40,494 nt of DNA. Source: Alphaproteobacteria bacterium (GTDB lineage Bacteria; Pseudomonadota; Alphaproteobacteria; Rs-D84). A model generated the notes under the pieces. It ran no database searches. It saw nothing but the letters and a program-made list of their open reading frames with translations, and had not been told where the DNA came from. Numbering within the stretch: the first letter of the stretch is position 1; every line of letters begins with the position of its first letter. The stretch covers positions 1 through 40,494 of the forward strand of contig JAGCDW010000025.1 in the NCBI GenBank assembly GCA_017650945.1, given 5' to 3'. Positions 1 through 32,766 of this stretch are shown piece after piece. The translations under genes were made by a program, and so were the position numbers.

Positions 1-2085
1 GCCGGTGGCAGTCCGATAGTTTCTTATCTTTTTGATAATGAGTGTGGGGTTACGGTTAAAGCGGTGACCGATGTGCATCAGGATAATGATGTGGCCAAGC
101 CTGTTACGCATAAAAGAGTAACGTTTAAAAACACATGTACCAATACGGAGCTGAGTGAGCACGCGGATGTTCCGGTTGGTACTGATGGTGCCGCATGCGG
201 AGCAGAAGTGGTAACTACGGCGTGTGGTCCGGAGGGCGTGGCGTCGGTACGTTGCGCCGATACAACGAAACGTGGTATCAAGGTTGAACACAAGAATTGT
301 TTAGGCCAGATTGTTGATGCTGATACGCAATATATATATAATGGCGATGATGGCACATCGTTTAAATACATGGGGACAGTTCCAAATTGTGATGCGTTGG
401 AGAACATTTCTAATCCGGCACAAAATGATGCATACATCGTTAATGGTGATGGAAATGGGAAATTGTGTATTTATAACGGTTCTGCGTGGCCAACATGTCC
501 AAGTGGTTGTGCGGAGTTTACCGGGCCTGCGGGCGCAAACAATTGTACAGGGTTTGAAAATTCGAATACGGCCGTGAGAAACACTACATTGGTATATGAC
601 GCGCCAATTAAAACCAATCAATCAGATGCATATTATACGGGGCGTGGAGGAATATTTCGGACAAATGTTATGTGCAATCCAAATTTGACTAATACAATAG
701 AAAAATTGGAAGATACTTGTTTCCAAATAGTAAAGCCAACGAATAGTGCATGTACTGGGGTATATATGGAATGCACTCCTAAGGGAACCTATGAAGGAAA
801 TACAAGTTATTCAAAATATAATCTGTGTGAGGCAGCGACCGGAACAACGATTGAATCTGCATTGAATGGCAAGGAAGATGCGTTATGTGTGGGAAATAAC
901 GCGAATTCTTCAAATGTGGAGAGAAAAAAGACCGTTGAGTATAGCGAACCGACCGGTGATGGAAGTGGTGGGGGATATTTTTGGAAAACCAGTATTGGCG
1001 GGTTGGAAAACAAGAGTGTGAAGTGTGATGATAGTTCTGTACCAATAGGTTTTACACCTGATAAGTGCGAAGAAATTGAGCGGCCGAATAGTAATGTTTG
1101 TACCGGAAATGGCAATGTTTATTATCGATGCACAAAACAAAATGATAATACGACAAAATATAACCTTTGTGCAAGTGGTACATCTGTTTTAGATAAAATT
1201 AGTACGGCACAATCTGCGGCCGCCAGCGCGGCCAGCGCGGCCAGCGCGGCGAATCCGTGTGCAAGTAATCCAAATTCAAATACAATAATAAAAAGTACGA
1301 CAAGTACATCGTATAGTCGCGGTACGAAAAGTAATGGTTTGTATCCGGATATAGGTAGTAAAACTGTTACAAAGACGGCATGTGATGGCACAACAACATA
1401 TACAACAACAGAGCAAGATTTTTGTGTAGAGATTGCCAAACCGGTTAACGTTTGTACGGGGGCAACATCAGCATATTTGCGTTGTTATAATGACCAGGTT
1501 TCATCAGATAAAACGTATCATGTTTGCCAGGATTTGGGTACCGGGAATAATTCGTTAGCAAATAAGATTGACGCTAAGGCAGATGCGAGTGCGGTGACAC
1601 TCAATGCGTTAGCAACCACTTTGGGAGATACCTATTTGAAACCAACTGATAATATAAATGCTAGTAATTTAACAGGGACAATTAATGCTGAAAGATTGCC
1701 GGGTAATGTCTTGACAACGGACAATATCGAGGAGGAACTTGAACGTCAGTTGGATGAAGGTGGTTCATTAGAGAATGTTGTGACGAATGGTAATATCGCA
1801 GACAAGCTTGCAGAGCAGTTGGAATCAGGCGGTGCGTTAGAGGATGTCGTTACTACGAGTAATTTGGCGGATAGTCTTGCAAATGATACTGAGGCTGTTT
1901 TCAATTTTGGAACAAACGGCAGTCAGGTAAATATAACGTTTGGTGATGTTATAGAATTGTTACATGCCATTACAGGAGATTGTACGGTAAATACCAATAG
2001 TTTGCAACGGACGGTTTCATGTAGTAATGGTGAACTAGGTAAACAGCTAAATGTAAATAGGCAAATTGGTATGGCAACACCATAA
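1..2085 (+). CDS. Large Cys-rich secreted/surface protein, 5'-truncated by the window edge, with a tail-fibre-like C-terminal region
   Basis: Frame 1 is open from nt 1, with no stop before the GTG at 64; stop TAA is at 2083-2085. It contains three ~110-aa six-Cys modules (C..I.KP...CTG...Y..C....KY.LC). It also has the motif INASNLTGTINAERLPGNV and 21-aa acidic repeats. No enzyme motifs were seen. Confidence 0.7.
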   Translation, partial: AGGSPIVSYLFDNECGVTVKAVTDVHQDNDVAKPVTHKRVTFKNTCTNTELSEHADVPVGTDGAACGAEVVTTACGPEGVASVRCADTTKRGIKVEHKNCLGQIVDADTQYIYNGDDGTSFKYMGTVPNCDALENISNPAQNDAYIVNGDGNGKLCIYNGSAWPTCPSGCAEFTGPAGANNCTGFENSNTAVRNTTLVYDAPIKTNQSDAYYTGRGGIFRTNVMCNPNLTNTIEKLEDTCFQIVKPTNSACTGVYMECTPKGTYEGNTSYSKYNLCEAATGTTIESALNGKEDALCVGNNANSSNVERKKTVEYSEPTGDGSGGGYFWKTSIGGLENKSVKCDDSSVPIGFTPDKCEEIERPNSNVCTGNGNVYYRCTKQNDNTTKYNLCASGTSVLDKISTAQSAAASAASAASAANPCASNPNSNTIIKSTTSTSYSRGTKSNGLYPDIGSKTVTKTACDGTTTYTTTEQDFCVEIAKPVNVCTGATSAYLRCYNDQVSSDKTYHVCQDLGTGNNSLANKIDAKADASAVTLNALATTLGDTYLKPTDNINASNLTGTINAERLPGNVLTTDNIEEELERQLDEGGSLENVVTNGNIADKLAEQLESGGALEDVVTTSNLADSLANDTEAVFNFGTNGSQVNITFGDVIELLHAITGDCTVNTNSLQRTVSCSNGELGKQLNVNRQIGMATP

Positions 2086-15963: not shown

Positions 15964-16417
15964 TAATCGCATCTTGGTTGGAAAAATTGTTGCACCCCAA
16001 GGAATTCGGGGCGAGGTTCGCGTTCAGACCTTTACCGAAAAACCGTCGGACTTTCAAAGTTTGGCGGTTTTCGGCGACAAAATTCCGGCCGGCACGTTGC
16101 ACTTTGTGCGCATAGTTCCAAATACAAATGTCGTGATTGCCCGCGTTGATGGGGTCGGCGATCGGAATATGGCAGAAACTTTGCGTGGCACAGAATTGTA
16201 TGTCAATCGTGATGATTTGCCCGCGCCGCGTGATGGCGAATATTATCAGGCGGATTTGATTGGTATGACCGTTGTGCGTAGCAGCAAAGAATTGGGGCGT
16301 GTTGCATGCTTTCAAAACTTTGGTGCCGGCGACATTATGGAATTAGAAAATGGCGAAATGGTGTCTTTTGCTGGGGCGAGTGTAGATTTCGAAAAGAAAA
16401 TAATAACGGTAAAATAA
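15953..16417 (+). CDS. rimM: Ribosome maturation factor RimM
   Basis: ILVGKIVAPQGIRGEVRVQTFTEKP is the RimM N-terminal signature; operon context. Confidence 0.88.
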   Translation: MKSDNRILVGKIVAPQGIRGEVRVQTFTEKPSDFQSLAVFGDKIPAGTLHFVRIVPNTNVVIARVDGVGDRNMAETLRGTELYVNRDDLPAPRDGEYYQADLIGMTVVRSSKELGRVACFQNFGAGDIMELENGEMVSFAGASVDFEKKIITVK

Positions 16418-16433
16418 TAAAAAGGGGGAAAAT

Positions 16434-16646
16434 ATGTATAGAACCTTTAATATTCAAATTATAAGTGAACAATGTCCAGATGGCCAGAAAACTTGTCCGG
16501 TTCAAGAATATCTTGGAAAACAGCAATTGCTCCGTCCAACAATAAATGAATCTTTATATGCGCCTGCAAAATCGCTTCAGGTGGACGAATTTGTTGCGCT
16601 TTGGAATGAGATGAAAAACATTTGCGCGAATTGCAAGAGCAAATAA
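16434..16646 (+). CDS. Small Cys4 protein, paralog 1 (70 aa)
   Basis: AAGGGGG SD. MYRTFNIQ..CPDGQKTCP....ICANC. Confidence 0.6.
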   Translation: MYRTFNIQIISEQCPDGQKTCPVQEYLGKQQLLRPTINESLYAPAKSLQVDEFVALWNEMKNICANCKSK

Positions 16647-16659
16647 AAAAGGGACACCT

Positions 16660-16926
16660 ATGCGAACGATATATATAAATGAAGAACCTGTGCGTGTTGA
16701 AACCGGATGTGGATTGCGGCCGCTGCATAAATGTCCTGTTCAGGTTTGGGCCGAACGCCCAAATATTACCGCTACTATAAATAGAATTTTGCCGTGGCGG
16801 CCGATAATTCGCCTATGGACATATGACGCCCCAAGTAGATTTAGCAAACAAGTTCAAAACCTGTGTGATAGTTGTTGCTATGGCGAGGCGTTTAAAATAA
16901 GACAAAAGCAACAGGCTTCAAGATGA
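16660..16926 (+). CDS. Small Cys4 protein, paralog 2 (88 aa)
   Basis: AAAGGGA SD. MRTIYINE..CGLRPLHKCP....LCDSCC. Confidence 0.6.
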   Translation: MRTIYINEEPVRVETGCGLRPLHKCPVQVWAERPNITATINRILPWRPIIRLWTYDAPSRFSKQVQNLCDSCCYGEAFKIRQKQQASR

Positions 16927-17093
16927 ACATGTTTGAACGGTTTGTTTATTCAATGATAACTAGCAGGGATAGAAATTGTCTGCCGCCCGAAGAATGCCCG
17001 GCAATAAAGGCGGAATGCGATAAAAAAAGCGCACAAGATGTTCTCATATTATGCGAACAGTGCTGGAATAAGTTAAATAAAAAACAAAGGTGA
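16923..17093 (+). CDS. Small Cys-rich protein, paralog 3 (56 aa, not in the ORF track)
   Basis: ATGA start/stop overlap with paralog 2. ..CLPPEECPAIKAEC....LCEQC. Confidence 0.5.
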   Translation: MNMFERFVYSMITSRDRNCLPPEECPAIKAECDKKSAQDVLILCEQCWNKLNKKQR

Positions 17094-17099
17094 AATAAC

Positions 17100-17354
17100 A
17101 TGCGAACTTTTTATGTAAACGAGGCAGAAGTCCAAAAATCTTTAAAATGTCCGGCGGGATTCGCAACGTGCCCGGCGTTCGATTTTTTAAAACTTTGTCC
17201 GAATGTGCGATACAGTATGCAAGGGCCGTTTAATGTGTCGGTTTTTATTGGACCGGTACAAAATCCAACTGCGATTTCTTTAAAGATTCAATCACTTTGT
17301 GATGAATGTTTGCCACGTGAAAAACACCATATAAGACCCCAAAGGGAGCGCTAG
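17100..17354 (+). CDS. Small Cys4 protein, paralog 4 (84 aa)
   Basis: AAAGGTGA SD. MRTFYVNE..CPAGFATCP....LCDEC. It ends 1 nt before the trmD GTG. Confidence 0.6.
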   Translation: MRTFYVNEAEVQKSLKCPAGFATCPAFDFLKLCPNVRYSMQGPFNVSVFIGPVQNPTAISLKIQSLCDECLPREKHHIRPQRER

Positions 17355-17355
17355 G

Positions 17356-18045
17356 GTGCACTTTAATATACTGACTGTTTTTCCAGAAATGTTTCCGGGG
17401 ACCCTTGGTGCCGGGGTGGTTGGGCGTGCGCACGCCAATGGAATCTGGTCGTACACGGTCATAAATATTCGCGACTTTGCCATAAACGATTACGGCAGTG
17501 TTGATGACACTCAATTCGGTGGTGGCGCGGGCATGGTTATGCGCCCCGATGCATTGGGGGCGGCGATTGATTCAATCAAAAATCCGGGGAAAATTATATA
17601 TTTTTCGCCGCGGGGGGCGGCGCTCTGTCAAAAAATGGTGCGCGGGTTTGCGGAAAATCCGGAAAATGCGGTTTATACCCTGCTCTGTGGTCGGTACGAA
17701 GGAATTGACCAGCGGGTTATCGAAGAGTATAATATCATGGAATTATCCATTGGCGATTACATCTTATCTGGTGGTGAAATTGCCGCGCAAGTTTTTATTG
17801 ACAGCACGGTTCGCGTGTTGGATAATGTCCTTGGTGGCGGTGCGGAATCGACCGCTGCGGAAAGTTTTGAAATCGGGGGGTTGGAATGGCCGTTATATAC
17901 CCGCCCGTCGGTATGGCGTGGACGGAAAGTCCCAGAAGTCCTGCTGTCTGGCCATCACGGCAATATAGAACGGTGGCGGAAACAACAATCGGACGAAATA
18001 ACAAAAGAACGTCGTCCGGACTTAATAAAGGAAAATGAAAAATGA
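17356..18045 (+). CDS. trmD: tRNA (guanine37-N1)-methyltransferase
   Basis: [14 protein letters not shown]..., RYEGIDQRV and [11 protein letters not shown] are TrmD motifs. GTG start after AAGGGAG. Confidence 0.92.
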
Positions 18046-18449
18046 ACATTATTAAAAAAATCGAAGAAAAAAATATCGCAAAGGTCAAAGGCGACAAGGT
18101 TATTCCGAACTTCAAGGCCGGTGATACTTTGCGTGTGCATGTGAAAATCAAAGATGGCGACAAATTCCGTATTCAGTTATTCGAAGGTGTCGTTATCGCG
18201 CGCGATGGTGGCATGGGTAATACCGCATCGTTCACGGTTCGCCGCGAATCTTATGGTGTTGGTGTTGAACGCAAGTTCCCACTGTACAGCCCGGCAATCG
18301 AAAAGATTGAAAAGGTTCGTATCGGGCGCGTGCGTCGTGCGAAATTGTTCTTTTTGCGGAAATTGTCCGGTAAAAAGGCGCGTATTGTCGAAGATTTGGC
18401 GGCGGCAAGCGCAGAAAAAGGCGCAAAAGCCGAAAAGAGCGAAAAATAA
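18042..18449 (+). CDS. rplS: 50S ribosomal protein L19
   Basis: [33 protein letters not shown]...RRAKLFFLR. It overlaps the trmD stop (ATGA). Confidence 0.92.
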
Positions 18450-18863: not shown

Positions 18864-19247
18864 TTATTCGCGACCACCGTTTATTCTGTGCAGCAAGTTA
18901 CCATCGATCATCCTTTGGTTCCTTGCCTTAATATTATCGTCCATCTGTTTGTCTAATTTTGCAAGATCCCGGCGTTGTTCTGCAATCCAATTTTCATCGC
19001 TTGCGTGGTTAGTAAAGTCCCGCAATATAAAATCCAGGTCGCCACCACGAGCCAAACTATTGGTCGCATTTTTATATTCTTCCGATCGCGGCCTATAAGC
19101 CAAAACTTGTTCCGCATACCATTTAACGGCTCTTATTTCCTGGTCGGTCAATGCTCGACCCAATTTTTCATTTTTTACTTGTTCCAAAGGTAAATTACCG
19201 GATTTGACCTTTTTTGTACCGGATTCAAAATCTTTTTTTGTGACCAT
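18864..19247 (-). CDS. Hypothetical protein, tandem paralog B (127 aa)
   Basis: AAGAGG SD. MVTKKDFESGTKKVKSGNLPLEQVKNEKLGRALTDQEIRAVKWYA is co-linear with the 19294-19638 product. Confidence 0.6.
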   Translation of the reverse strand: MVTKKDFESGTKKVKSGNLPLEQVKNEKLGRALTDQEIRAVKWYAEQVLAYRPRSEEYKNATNSLARGGDLDFILRDFTNHASDENWIAEQRRDLAKLDKQMDDNIKARNQRMIDGNLLHRINGGRE

Positions 19248-19293
19248 ATTTACACCTCTTTTTTTATTAAAACACAAACCAAACAATCGTGGT

Positions 19294-19638
19294 TTATAAA
19301 CGCCCCGGTTTACCAAGGTTTTTCATACACACCCGATGTTTCATAGCCTCCATTTGGCTTTTATTTCGTTGTTTTTTCATCTGAGACCAAGCTGTATCAT
19401 TTCCATGTGCCTTAAAAGATTGCAATATATTATCAATATTTCCAGCAACAACCAGTTCCCGAACCCCGCTTTCATAGCTTTCTGAATTCGATGCCAAAAT
19501 CGCAGCCCACCATTTAACGGCGGTTAATTCTTCTTTGGTCAACACACGTTTCAGTCCTTCGTTTTTTAGTTGTTCCAGAGGTTCCACGCTGGATTTAACC
19601 TTTTTCGTACCGGCTTCAAAATCTTTTTTTGTGGCCAT
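19294..19638 (-). CDS. Hypothetical protein, tandem paralog A (114 aa)
   Basis: AAGGAG SD 6 nt upstream of the ATG. MATKKDFEAGTKKVKSSVEPLEQLKNEGLKRVLTKEELTAVKWWA. Confidence 0.6.
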   Translation of the reverse strand: MATKKDFEAGTKKVKSSVEPLEQLKNEGLKRVLTKEELTAVKWWAAILASNSESYESGVRELVVAGNIDNILQSFKAHGNDTAWSQMKKQRNKSQMEAMKHRVCMKNLGKPGRL

Positions 19639-19752
19639 AATCAACTCCTTTGTTCATTACAGATGCCCAAATTATATCACAAACCATTCCAAAAAGCAAC
19701 TTTGCCGACACTTCACTTTTGTCGTACAAACGGCAATCTGTCGCGCAGTTTT

Positions 19753-30837: not shown

Positions 30838-32766
30838 ATGACTTTGACAGATATATGGATTATGGTTGGTTCGGTAATTGGCGCATTATTTGTCGGCGTG
30901 TTGATTGCGCTGTTCTTTATTTCCCGCCGTTCACAGCGTGTGATGCAATCTGTGCTTGACATTATGACGGCACCTGACCGCGCACGAATAACGGATGCTT
31001 CGCGTGTTTTACAAACAATTATGGCGGACGAAATTGCTAAAATTTCCGCGTGTTTTACCGAAATTCGCGAAACATTAAAAACACAAATTGGTGTGGCAGA
31101 AAAGTTACGCGGCGAACTTGCCATGCGTAACGAGAGTTTGGTCAATATCGCGAACGATGCGGTTATGCGCGTTTCACAAATGACGGATAGGGTTGATAAT
31201 ACTGTAACAGGGTTGCGTGAGGTTGTTGATTCTGAGGCATGGGGTGATGTTGCGAACGCGACCGATAGGTTTGCCGCAACGGTTTGGGAAACACTTACAA
31301 AAATAACAGAAACAACTAAGGATTCATCTGATAAAATTGCAACAATTGACGAAAAAATTGCCGATTGGACCGAAAGCACAAAAAATCTCGCAAATGAATT
31401 AAATGGCACAATTGATACGGCGGTGGAAAAATTTCAACAAATGTCAAATGAATCTGATGGCATGAAAAATGATATTACCGAATTGACCAAGGACGCGGTC
31501 GAAGGTTTCGGAAATATCAAGTCATCCGCCACAAATTATGAAGGCATTCTGAATAATAACAATAAAATATTGAATACGTACCTTACAAAACTTGAAACTT
31601 TTGACCGTCAAAGCAAGAAACAATTGACAAGTCAGATGAACACCCTTACTAATACCGCAAATATTGTCGGGGCTCAGGTTATGTTGACGGAATCTTCGGT
31701 TGAAAAGCAATTGCGCAAACTTACCGAAATTGTCGAAATGGTTATCAAGAGTGCGACTGAAACAGAAAGTTCTGTGCGAGGTATATCGAGTGAGTTGTCC
31801 GGCCTTACCAATCATTTCGAAACGGAAATCAAAGAATTTGCGACTGATGTCGTTTCCGAACTGCAAACCGTAGCTGGGGTTGCAAATACAACGCTCAAAG
31901 ATACCAAGACGGCTGCTGGTGCGTTTTCTGAATCTGTAAAATCCATGGCGACCGGTGTGCGTGAAACACTTATCGAAATGAACGCGGCACATACGCAATT
32001 GTCCGGTCAATCCGAAGGCCTTATCAAGATGTCTGTGGACACAACCGCACAGTTAAAGCCGTTGTCTGAATTGATTGAAAAATATTATGCCGCCCTGCCC
32101 GCGTTGGCGCAAAGTTCGGATGATGCCGGCGTGCGCCTTGGTGCGATTGTCGCCGAATTGGACGCCAAGATCTCGACTATGCGCGATACGGTCGCAGGGG
32201 CAACGGAATCTGTTTCTGAATCTGCGGCGAAACTTGATACCCTTGCGGGTGCATCACGTCAACAGATGATAGATTTAATGTCTGACTATGCCAAGGCGGT
32301 TGATACGATGCAGACGCTTAATAAACAAATGGCTGTTGCGCGTGCCGCCGCACCAATGGAAGCGATAAGTACCTTGACCAAGGGAAACCCGGCACCCGCG
32401 GCCAGCAGTCATGATTTCCTTGCACAATCTACACGTGAATTTGATAAGATGTACGAGCAGACGATTGACCTGACCCGCGCGATGGGGACTGATATACCGG
32501 ATATTGTTTGGAAAAAGTATCATGATGGCGATAAGACAATCTTTGCCAAATGGATGGCCAAGGTTGTAAAGGCTGCAAATAAAAAGCAAATTCGCGATTT
32601 ATTAAAGAATGATTCTGTATTCCGGTCCCAATCTGCACAATTTGTGCGTGCCTTTGACCGTATCTTGTCGGCGGCGAAACAAACAGATACGGCGGACAAA
32701 CTGACCGCCGCACTGATTAAAACCGATTTGGGTATTATATATTCCGCCCTTTCGGCCCAGGTTTAA
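30838..32766 (+). CDS. Membrane-anchored long coiled-coil protein
   Basis: N-terminal TM (IWIMVGSVIGALFVGVLIALFFI) followed by about 500 aa of heptad-like low-Cys sequence. GGGGGGAAAAG SD. Confidence 0.7.
   Translation: MTLTDIWIMVGSVIGALFVGVLIALFFISRRSQRVMQSVLDIMTAPDRARITDASRVLQTIMADEIAKISACFTEIRETLKTQIGVAEKLRGELAMRNESLVNIANDAVMRVSQMTDRVDNTVTGLREVVDSEAWGDVANATDRFAATVWETLTKITETTKDSSDKIATIDEKIADWTESTKNLANELNGTIDTAVEKFQQMSNESDGMKNDITELTKDAVEGFGNIKSSATNYEGILNNNNKILNTYLTKLETFDRQSKKQLTSQMNTLTNTANIVGAQVMLTESSVEKQLRKLTEIVEMVIKSATETESSVRGISSELSGLTNHFETEIKEFATDVVSELQTVAGVANTTLKDTKTAAGAFSESVKSMATGVRETLIEMNAAHTQLSGQSEGLIKMSVDTTAQLKPLSELIEKYYAALPALAQSSDDAGVRLGAIVAELDAKISTMRDTVAGATESVSESAAKLDTLAGASRQQMIDLMSDYAKAVDTMQTLNKQMAVARAAAPMEAISTLTKGNPAPAASSHDFLAQSTREFDKMYEQTIDLTRAMGTDIPDIVWKKYHDGDKTIFAKWMAKVVKAANKKQIRDLLKNDSVFRSQSAQFVRAFDRILSAAKQTDTADKLTAALIKTDLGIIYSALSAQV

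Follow-up and report, generated by a model that had tools for sequence, protein, structure and literature searches.

Four small genes occupy the space between rimM and trmD

The window analysed here is a 40,494-nucleotide (nt) stretch of alphaproteobacterial DNA (contig JAGCDW010000025.1 of assembly GCA_017650945.1), in which the rpsP-rimM-trmD-rplS operon carries an array of four small genes, designated o1 to o4, between rimM and trmD. The rimM-trmD slot of the window measures 938 nt and is filled by these four genes, all of which lie on the same strand. An initial annotation had described four open reading frames (ORFs) of 70, 88, 56 and 84 amino acids (aa) at this position, and their coordinates and lengths proved to be exact (Table 1). 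The same was true for their spacing, with gaps of 16 and 13 nt, an ATGA sequence in which the o2 stop codon overlaps the o3 start codon, a gap of 6 nt and, finally, 1 nt before the GTG start codon of trmD. That each ORF possesses a Shine-Dalgarno (SD) sequence of its own was borne out for o1, o2 and o4, where the sequence is clear; o3 has only a weak one and depends on its ATGA overlap with o2. The SD of trmD falls within the 3′ end of o4. No promoter or terminator stood out within the slot, and an Rfam search identified no family there, the sub-threshold 'leader' matches being located solely at the 3′ end of rplS.

Table 1. Genes of the trmD operon in the window, with their coordinates and distinguishing features
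Gene or ORF	Coordinates	Strand	Features
rpsP (ribosomal protein S16)	15284..15721	+	First gene of the operon; Pfam Ribosomal_S16, E=1.7e-21
Lineage-specific 80-aa ORF, rpsP-rimM junction	15721..15963	+	One Cys; unrelated to the Cys4 family
rimM (16S rRNA processing protein)	15953..16417	+	Pfam RimM, E=1e-16
o1, 70-aa Cys4 protein	16434..16646	+	C14-x6-C21-P ... C64-x2-C67; SD GGGGGA upstream
o2, 88-aa Cys4 protein with basic C-terminal helix	16660..16926	+	C17-x7-C25-P ... C69-x2-C72; SD AGGGA
o3, 56-aa short-form Cys4 protein	16923..17093	+	C19-x5-C25-P ... C44-x2-C47
o4, 84-aa Cys4 protein	17100..17354	+	C17-x6-C24-P ... C67-x2-C70; SD AAGGTGA upstream
trmD (tRNA m1G37 methyltransferase)	17356..18045	+	GTG start; SD AGGGAG; Pfam tRNA_m1G_MT, E=2.5e-43
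rplS (ribosomal protein L19)	18042..18449	+	Last gene of the operon; Pfam Ribosomal_L19, E=1.9e-41

A genome scan with the TrmD protein of the window yielded 80 species-representative genomes with TrmD proteins that were 82-95% identical, a number that excludes ~380 further TrmD relatives. These relatives were labelled as Candidatus Enterousia or as uncultured gut or rumen Alphaproteobacteria, and one of them was a circular genome of 958 kb. The organism represented by the window is Candidatus Enterousia (Alphaproteobacteria, order Rs-D84). Enterousia genomes are smaller than 1 Mb, they encode no tricarboxylic acid (TCA) cycle or respiratory chain and only few transporters, and the bacteria are probably obligate symbionts or parasites (PMC12306168). 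Our comparative set comprised the 77 loci holding both rimM and trmD. Across these loci, the distance between the two genes ranged from 2 nt to 3387 nt, and the slot was tiled on the operon strand by zero to nine small ORFs. A contig titled as a Bacteroides fragilis isolate (L043; CAVGNU010000005.1) carried an Enterousia-like trmD operon with a TrmD 85% identical to that of the window, and this contig has probably been mis-binned or mislabelled.

The slot ORFs are genuine genes under purifying selection

To address the possibility that ORFs of this size arise by chance, the 938-nt slot was simulated 5000 times with a first-order Markov model. ORFs of 50 aa or longer cover 96% of the actual sequence but did not cover 90% in any of the simulations, and an ORF bearing the Cys motif appeared in 0.04% of them, compared with all four ORFs of the slot. 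When the four genes were compared with their orthologues in related genomes, the ratios of nonsynonymous to synonymous substitution rates (dN/dS) amounted to 0.09-0.39 for o1, 0.09-0.21 for o2, 0.04-0.21 for o3 and 0.30 for o4; dS was often saturated, so that these values are approximate, but their direction is clear. Furthermore, in all related loci taken together, SD motifs were found upstream of 67% of the slot ORFs versus 15% of the background positions, and the median spacer between slot ORFs was ~12 nt. The ORFs have been called independently by the NCBI, JGI, ENA and Logan gene callers, always under the name 'hypothetical protein', and o3 is left without a gene call in the NCBI records. 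Together these findings verified that o1 to o4 are genuine protein-coding genes under purifying selection: the dN/dS ratios, the SD enrichment, the simulations and the existence of orthologues all argue against random ORFs in a spacer. Since the spacers are so short or overlapping, and no promoter or terminator is evident, o1 to o4 are most likely expressed from the operon transcript and translationally coupled.

The four proteins belong to a narrow Cys4 family restricted to the slot

In BLASTP comparisons among the copies, o4 was linked to o2 (E=4e-8) and to o1 (E=1e-4), and to o3 only at E=0.023, while o1 and o2 yielded no alignment with each other. Four Cys residues are invariant in the alignment of o1 to o4. 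Both results support the original description of a paralogous Cys4 family inserted in the rpsP-rimM-trmD-rplS operon. All of the shared Cys motifs listed in that description are present, with the correction that the first pair of o3 is C-x5-C and not x6 or x7.

Searching with a profile built from o1 to o4 brought up 18 unnamed proteins from metagenomes, 70-91 aa in length, which are orthologues of o1 (P0013-P0018), o2 (P0003, P0004, P0007-P0012) and o4 (P0002, P0005, P0006, P0028). Further orthologues of o1 were present in loci L001, L003, L004, L009 and L011, one of o4 in L005, and orthologues of o3, with lengths of 54-63 aa, in L004, L005, L007, L010, L013, L015, L020 and L030. When 1.84 billion representative proteins were scanned exhaustively with HMMER, 44 matches at E<=1e-3 were obtained, ~40 of which were proteins of 69-90 aa with the same motif, the remainder being long Cys-repeat proteins that look spurious. 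The small number of matches in so large a collection shows that the family is narrow. A second profile, built from 73 divergent slot ORFs (A2), gave only eight weak matches among 5.8 billion proteins, as it was too poor in information.

On the basis of these sequences, we defined the family as proteins of 55-125 aa with the pattern C-x4-9-C-[P] ... [LIV]C-x2-C whose genes are located between rimM and trmD on the strand of the operon. This definition covers o1 to o4. An iterated hidden Markov model (HMM) seeded on the window copies scored o1, o2 and o4 at E=1e-14 to 1e-20, and o3, which was not significant to this HMM, belongs to the family by its motif, its location and its conserved short subfamily. 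The HMM mostly misses that subfamily, one member of which (in L004) scored 2e-4. Of the 127 ORFs tiling the slots, 87 were recognised by the iterated HMM. With the o3 type included, at least one family member was present in 59 of the 77 loci, at zero to six copies per locus, whereas nine slots were empty and nine held other small ORFs only. The synteny comparison proposed with the initial annotation thus shows the ORFs to be conserved in relatives.

The iterated HMM was also applied to the 6876 six-frame ORFs of all loci and of the 40-kb window. It gave 100 matches, each of which was located in the slot on the + strand; one of these was scored outside the slot solely because the start of its longest ORF lies within rimM. 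As the HMM was trained on slot ORFs, the informative point here is that nothing matched elsewhere among the six-frame ORFs. The profile search, likewise proposed at the outset, found relatives, and every database relative with a readable context was located between rimM and trmD. We therefore consider it very highly probable that o1 to o4 belong to a real gene family whose array is restricted to the rimM-trmD slot. We encountered the family only in Candidatus Enterousia-like Alphaproteobacteria of the gut and rumen (order Rs-D84).

The statement that the family is not a recognised one was upheld: searches of Pfam (at E<=1), NCBIfam, PADLOC, PHROGs and the PDB sequences gave no family match for o1 to o4, PADLOC and PHROGs returning noise only (E=0.033 and E=0.099). 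The literature searched contained no mention of small proteins encoded at the rimM-trmD junction, and Enterousia and Rs-D84 are described there at the genome level only. Thus, the Cys4 family is undescribed in the libraries and literature searched, and its predicted fold, presented below, is without a structural match.

The array evolves by duplication, divergence and loss

The 127 slot ORFs fell into 52 BLAST clusters, and the slots of related species combine these in various ways. For instance, L003 carries o1-o2, L005 carries o3-o4, L007 carries o3 only, L011 has the order o2-o1, and in L004 an o1-type and an o3-type gene are accompanied by an ORF of 120 aa. The combination o1-o2-o3-o4 was observed in the window only. 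In a neighbour-joining tree of TrmD and RimM, empty slots were nested within groups of occupied ones at no fewer than five distinct positions, which shows that the common ancestor of the sampled clade possessed the family and that losses have recurred since. When genome pairs were compared, the amino acid identity was 37-70% for the small proteins, 69-86% for RimM and 85-95% for TrmD.

Paralogues have also become fused. In P0068, from a close strain (316-kb JGI contig), o2 and o3 are joined in frame to a protein of 140 aa, and P0032 (L084:1391-1789) is an in-frame fusion of an o3-type and an o1-type protein of 132 aa. These natural fusions suggest that the paralogues act together as modules. 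Altogether, the array arose by tandem duplication, divergence and loss, without a mobile cassette.

The biggest expansions of the slot were observed in L017 and L019, with rimM-trmD gaps of 2490 and 3387 nt that are tiled by five and nine ORFs, respectively. These ORFs include proteins of 140-165 aa, some of which are recognised by the HMM over one domain only, and several ORFs without detectable relatives. No two-domain HMM architecture was detected in the longer members.

The slot also accommodates other tenants. A second family of ~100-128 aa (alignment A5) was identified in further Enterousia species, namely in L051 (3688-3993), L040, L059, L076, L062, L081, L079, L080, L056, L031 and L025. 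Its members follow the consensus LPRTFV..YVP...C-x3-C..QF..YP...G.R.IP...CP, in which four Cys residues are invariant and spaced as C-x3-C-x21-C-P-x9-C. With an hhalign probability of 2.3% against the alignment of the o1-o4 family (A4), it is unrelated to the latter. The presence of a second four-Cys family suggests that the slot favours small metal-stabilised proteins. In addition, a Cys-free ORF of ~47 aa ('IIVHPDQNIIAKIAK.LEKTK') resides in the slot of other species, often preceding an A5 member. Ten other slot ORFs from relatives had no Pfam match.

A small basic domain with a probable zinc site

Among 73 divergent members the mean column identity was 14%, and only the four Cys residues were conserved at 90% or more. 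The pattern C-x4-9-C ... C-x2-C was matched by 128 of 138 members, with Pro following the second Cys in 94, and the linker between the Cys pairs ranged from 18 to 78 residues (median 44). The median isoelectric point (pI) of the members was 8.8, and the last 12 residues carry most of the net positive charge. Each protein is a mildly basic domain of ~55-100 aa without a recognisable signal peptide, and the only constraints acting family-wide are the four Cys residues and a hydrophobic core.

For o2, AlphaFold2 (AF2) with a 40-sequence alignment gave a model with a predicted local distance difference test score (pLDDT) of 91.3 and a predicted template modelling score (pTM) of 0.79; with a 25-sequence alignment the pLDDT was 48 and the model unusable. 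In the confident model, strands β1 (residues 2-6) and β2 (9-14) are followed by a loop with C17 and C25, and P26 caps helix α1 (26-30). Then come β3 (37-41), β4 (49-53), α2 (58-71), which contains C69 and is directly followed by C72, and the basic helix α3 (76-87). The predicted topology is thus β1β2-(Cys loop)-α1-β3β4-α2(CxxC)-α3. The o3 protein would represent a minimal version of this domain: its two Cys pairs are separated by a much shorter linker, and the β3-β4 region is presumably missing. Foldseek searches with the o2 model returned no significant match, the best E values being 2.3 in the PDB (with TMq up to 0.36) and 0.46 among the viral structures of BFVD, and a sequence-profile search of the PDB gave no matches at E<=10. 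The similarity to ferredoxin-like or RAM domains seen at these TMq values was judged to be noise.

As judged from their sequence, the four Cys residues probably form one structural metal site, with zinc as the most likely metal. The initial annotation had proposed a zinc-ribbon or treble-clef site, and this part did not hold, since the Cys pairs are placed differently in the AF2 model and Foldseek matched no zinc finger. A zinc ribbon, in which two β-hairpin knuckles would each supply a CxxC (or CPxCG) pair, was rejected as the first pair, C-x4-9-C (x5 to x7 in the window), lies in the β2-α1 loop and the second at the end of α2, and there is no Pfam zinc-ribbon match. A treble clef, with a zinc knuckle and two further ligands in the first turn of a helix, was rejected because there is no CxxC knuckle, and because α2 spans residues 58-71, which places C69 and C72 at the C-terminal end of the helix and not at its N-terminus; Foldseek against the PDB gave no match at E<1.

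Comparison with known small proteins

Among the closest counterparts are the zinc-binding ribosomal proteins bL31, bL32, bL33, bL36, uS14 and bS18 of the 'C+' type, which share with the slot family a small size, a basic character, four Cys residues, a gene position in or close to ribosomal operons and a number of paralogues that varies between genomes. However, the slot proteins have no Pfam or NCBIfam match to them, C-x4-9-C ... C-x2-C contrasts with two CxxC knuckles and the predicted ββαββαα arrangement with a zinc ribbon, and the slot family is both dispensable and limited to a single genus-level clade. The position of Cys4 proteins just upstream of trmD also recalls Trm112/YcaR (PF03966), a small zinc-knuckle Cys4 protein that activates methyltransferases and has a functional link to those acting on RNA. 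Here too, no Pfam match at E<=1 and no Foldseek match was obtained. Moreover, the family is absent from 18 of the 77 relatives with TrmD 82-95% identical. TrmD is a SPOUT enzyme for which no partner requirement is known.

In Firmicutes, the operon has the arrangement rpsP-ylqC-ylqD-rimM-trmD-rplS, with a small KH protein of the YlqC/KhpA type between rpsP and rimM. YlqC/KhpA is thus a precedent for a lineage-specific small RNA-binding protein in the trmD operon, but it occupies the other junction, has a KH fold and lacks a Cys4 site; neither o1 to o4 nor the 80-aa ORF at the rpsP-rimM junction had a Pfam KH match. The N-terminal zinc domain of Ada (PF02805) is a small α/β domain that combines a loop pair with a C-x2-C pair (Cys38, Cys42, Cys69 and Cys72). 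The spacing of its first Cys pair differs from that of the slot family, and no Pfam, PDB sequence or Foldseek match linked the two. Lastly, the orphan immunity arrays of polymorphic toxins consist of tandem, same-strand, closely packed small α/β proteins with a fast turnover in gut bacteria. The slot family differs from these in that there is no toxin and no match to known immunity proteins, in its housekeeping operon and in the single Cys4 scaffold shared by its main members.

Possible functions of the slot family

Two explanations of the array can be considered as essentially excluded. If the slot were a long non-coding spacer or a leader regulating trmD, the ORFs in it would be spurious, and indeed they are short, lack an annotated function and, in the case of o3, remain uncalled by NCBI. 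This idea, which we regard as extremely improbable, is contradicted by dN/dS ratios below 0.4, by the retention of four Cys residues across sequences that are ~14% identical, by the confident AF2 fold, by the SD enrichment, by a tiling never reached in the simulations and by the lack of an Rfam family in the slot. The highly variable slot content and the several unrelated families of small ORFs could be accounted for by mobile or selfish cassettes, of an integron-like kind or of phage origin, whose target is the rimM-trmD junction. Nevertheless, apart from one chance inverted pair of 15 nt, positions 15900-17500 contain no direct or inverted repeats and no attC-like sites, for which the ~12-nt spacers would leave no room as recombination sites. 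No integrase or transposase is encoded within 4 kb in any locus, the neighbours being housekeeping genes; a scan of viral contigs with o2 found no relative; and the distribution of the family follows the TrmD+RimM tree, with losses. A cassette origin is accordingly very improbable. Of the 'selfishly amplified insertion' put forward initially, the amplification stands, as tandem duplication and divergence, while the selfish character was not borne out by repeats, viral relatives or mobility genes; the family seems instead to have been passed on vertically in its one slot.

The explanation that we prefer, and to which we would give an even chance as a whole, is that of a real, zinc-stabilised Cys4 slot family with an accessory role toward RNA or the ribosome. 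The array sits on the operon strand in rpsP-rimM-(slot)-trmD-rplS and is subject to tandem birth and death. The metal site would allow a very small domain to fold while its remaining sequence diverges into many orthogroups. By virtue of their basic C-terminal helix or tail, and of their co-expression with genes for ribosomal proteins and for rRNA and tRNA maturation, the proteins may be RNA- or ribosome-associated accessory factors, which would be non-essential and made in proportion to ribosome synthesis. The operon context, the basic tails and the precedent of small zinc-binding ribosomal proteins favour such a translation-related role. Several observations weigh against it, however. The gene sets differ sharply among species with TrmD 92-95% identical to that of the window, and nine of the 77 slots have become empty through at least five independent losses; such dispensability, like the rapid turnover, speaks against a core translational role, and the fast divergence relative to RimM and TrmD fits badly with a conserved ribosomal target. 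Part of the basic C-terminal bias is forced by the downstream SD (e.g. AAACAAAGGTGA encodes K-Q-R-stop), and metal binding is predicted from the sequence only. The translation-related accessory function, taken by itself, is for these reasons a tentative first choice among the candidate functions.

Nearly as likely as an accessory role, and possible though somewhat doubtful in our view, is that the slot genes encode conflict or partner-interaction proteins, such as inhibitors, immunity-like proteins or effectors, which merely borrow the strong constitutive transcript of the trmD operon and serve the symbiotic or parasitic lifestyle, with no part in translation. Tandem arrays of small predicted α/β domains resemble orphan immunity-gene arrays, and rapid birth and death is evident from the 52 clusters, from the different content and order in close species, and from slot ORF numbers of zero to nine with repeated losses. 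Such a role would also suit a family confined to one lineage, as reflected in its 44 database matches, and a host whose genome is below 1 Mb and for which an obligately symbiotic or parasitic life has been predicted (PMC12306168). On the other hand, the proteins have no signal peptide, there is no toxin, secretion or defence gene nearby, PADLOC and PHROGs gave nothing, the orthogroups are under purifying and not positive selection (dN/dS 0.04-0.39), and a ribosomal operon is an atypical home for genes of this kind.

A metal-centred function, in which the proteins would buffer or store zinc or iron, or act as small redox or Fe-S carriers, with the copy number setting the dose, was judged to be improbable. 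It would be consistent with the four Cys residues as the only residues conserved family-wide, with the unrelated second four-Cys family in the same slot and with the variable copy number, and co-expression with ribosomal genes would scale the dose with growth. Against this, many non-Cys surface residues are strongly conserved within orthogroups (e.g. GCGLRPLHKCPVQVWA and VQNLCDSCYYGE in the o2 type), which argues for specific partners; a single site in a protein of 55-100 aa makes a poor buffer; and no similarity to rubredoxin, ferredoxin or metallothionein was found.

The arrangement rpsP-rimM-trmD-rplS is among the most conserved in bacteria, and one of its junctions appears here as a long-lived nursery of small proteins, which persists in an otherwise shrinking genome of less than 1 Mb. 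With zero to nine ORFs per slot, at least five losses, fusions and changes of order, the family offers a natural experiment in gene birth and death, and it provides candidates for lineage-specific translation or partner-interaction factors in a gut symbiont that is uncultured and apparently dependent on a partner. An array that grows and shrinks within so conserved an operon is unusual in its genomic behaviour. Should the proteins turn out to bind ribosomes or TrmD/RimM, the family would join the few lineage-specific proteins known to associate with bacterial ribosomes; otherwise it would illustrate how accessory genes exploit an essential operon for their expression. It is rather unlikely, but worth considering, that the family represents a new class of zinc-stabilised accessories of the ribosome or of RNA maturation with a new fold, or else a new type of conflict or immunity array wired to a ribosomal-protein transcript. 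In the case of an accessory class, the repertoire reshuffled between species would constitute a tunable, species-specific layer on ribosome assembly or tRNA modification in Enterousia.

Other features of the operon and its surroundings

The 80-aa ORF at the rpsP-rimM junction is a second lineage-specific small protein of the trmD operon. It overlaps the start of rimM by 11 nt and had no Pfam or NCBIfam match. By tblastn it was detected at the same junction in 22 related loci, with 33-79% identity, and genes for proteins of 79-82 aa have been called there in L001 and in L084-L086. The distance between rpsP and rimM also varies among the relatives. The S16 protein encoded by rpsP has a low-complexity C-terminal extension of ~60 aa that is rich in Ala, Glu and Lys, its Pfam domain covering residues 9-71.

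Divergently from rpsP, positions 13949-15118 (- strand) encode a protein of 389 aa with a hydrophobic, signal-like N-terminal segment. Its C-terminal ~200 aa are extremely rich in Cys and contain knottin-like repeats, with a weak Pfam match to Dickkopf_N (E=2e-5), and it is possibly a secreted or surface protein of a partner-dependent bacterium. Downstream of the operon, two overlapping ORFs on the - strand (18864-19316 and 19294-19644) encode tandem paralogues of 150 and 116 aa, which have no Pfam match and share the sequence 'TKKDFE.GTKKVKS...LEQ.KNE.L.R.LT..E..AVKW'. Two large ORFs at 64-2085 (+) and 30838-32766 (+), of 673 and 642 aa, are without a Pfam domain at E<=1e-5. The neighbourhood in the window is otherwise of a housekeeping nature and includes genes for iPGM, PFK, GDH, TsaD, XseA, a RecN-like protein, UvrD, RpoD, CysRS and a TrpRS/TyrRS-type synthetase.

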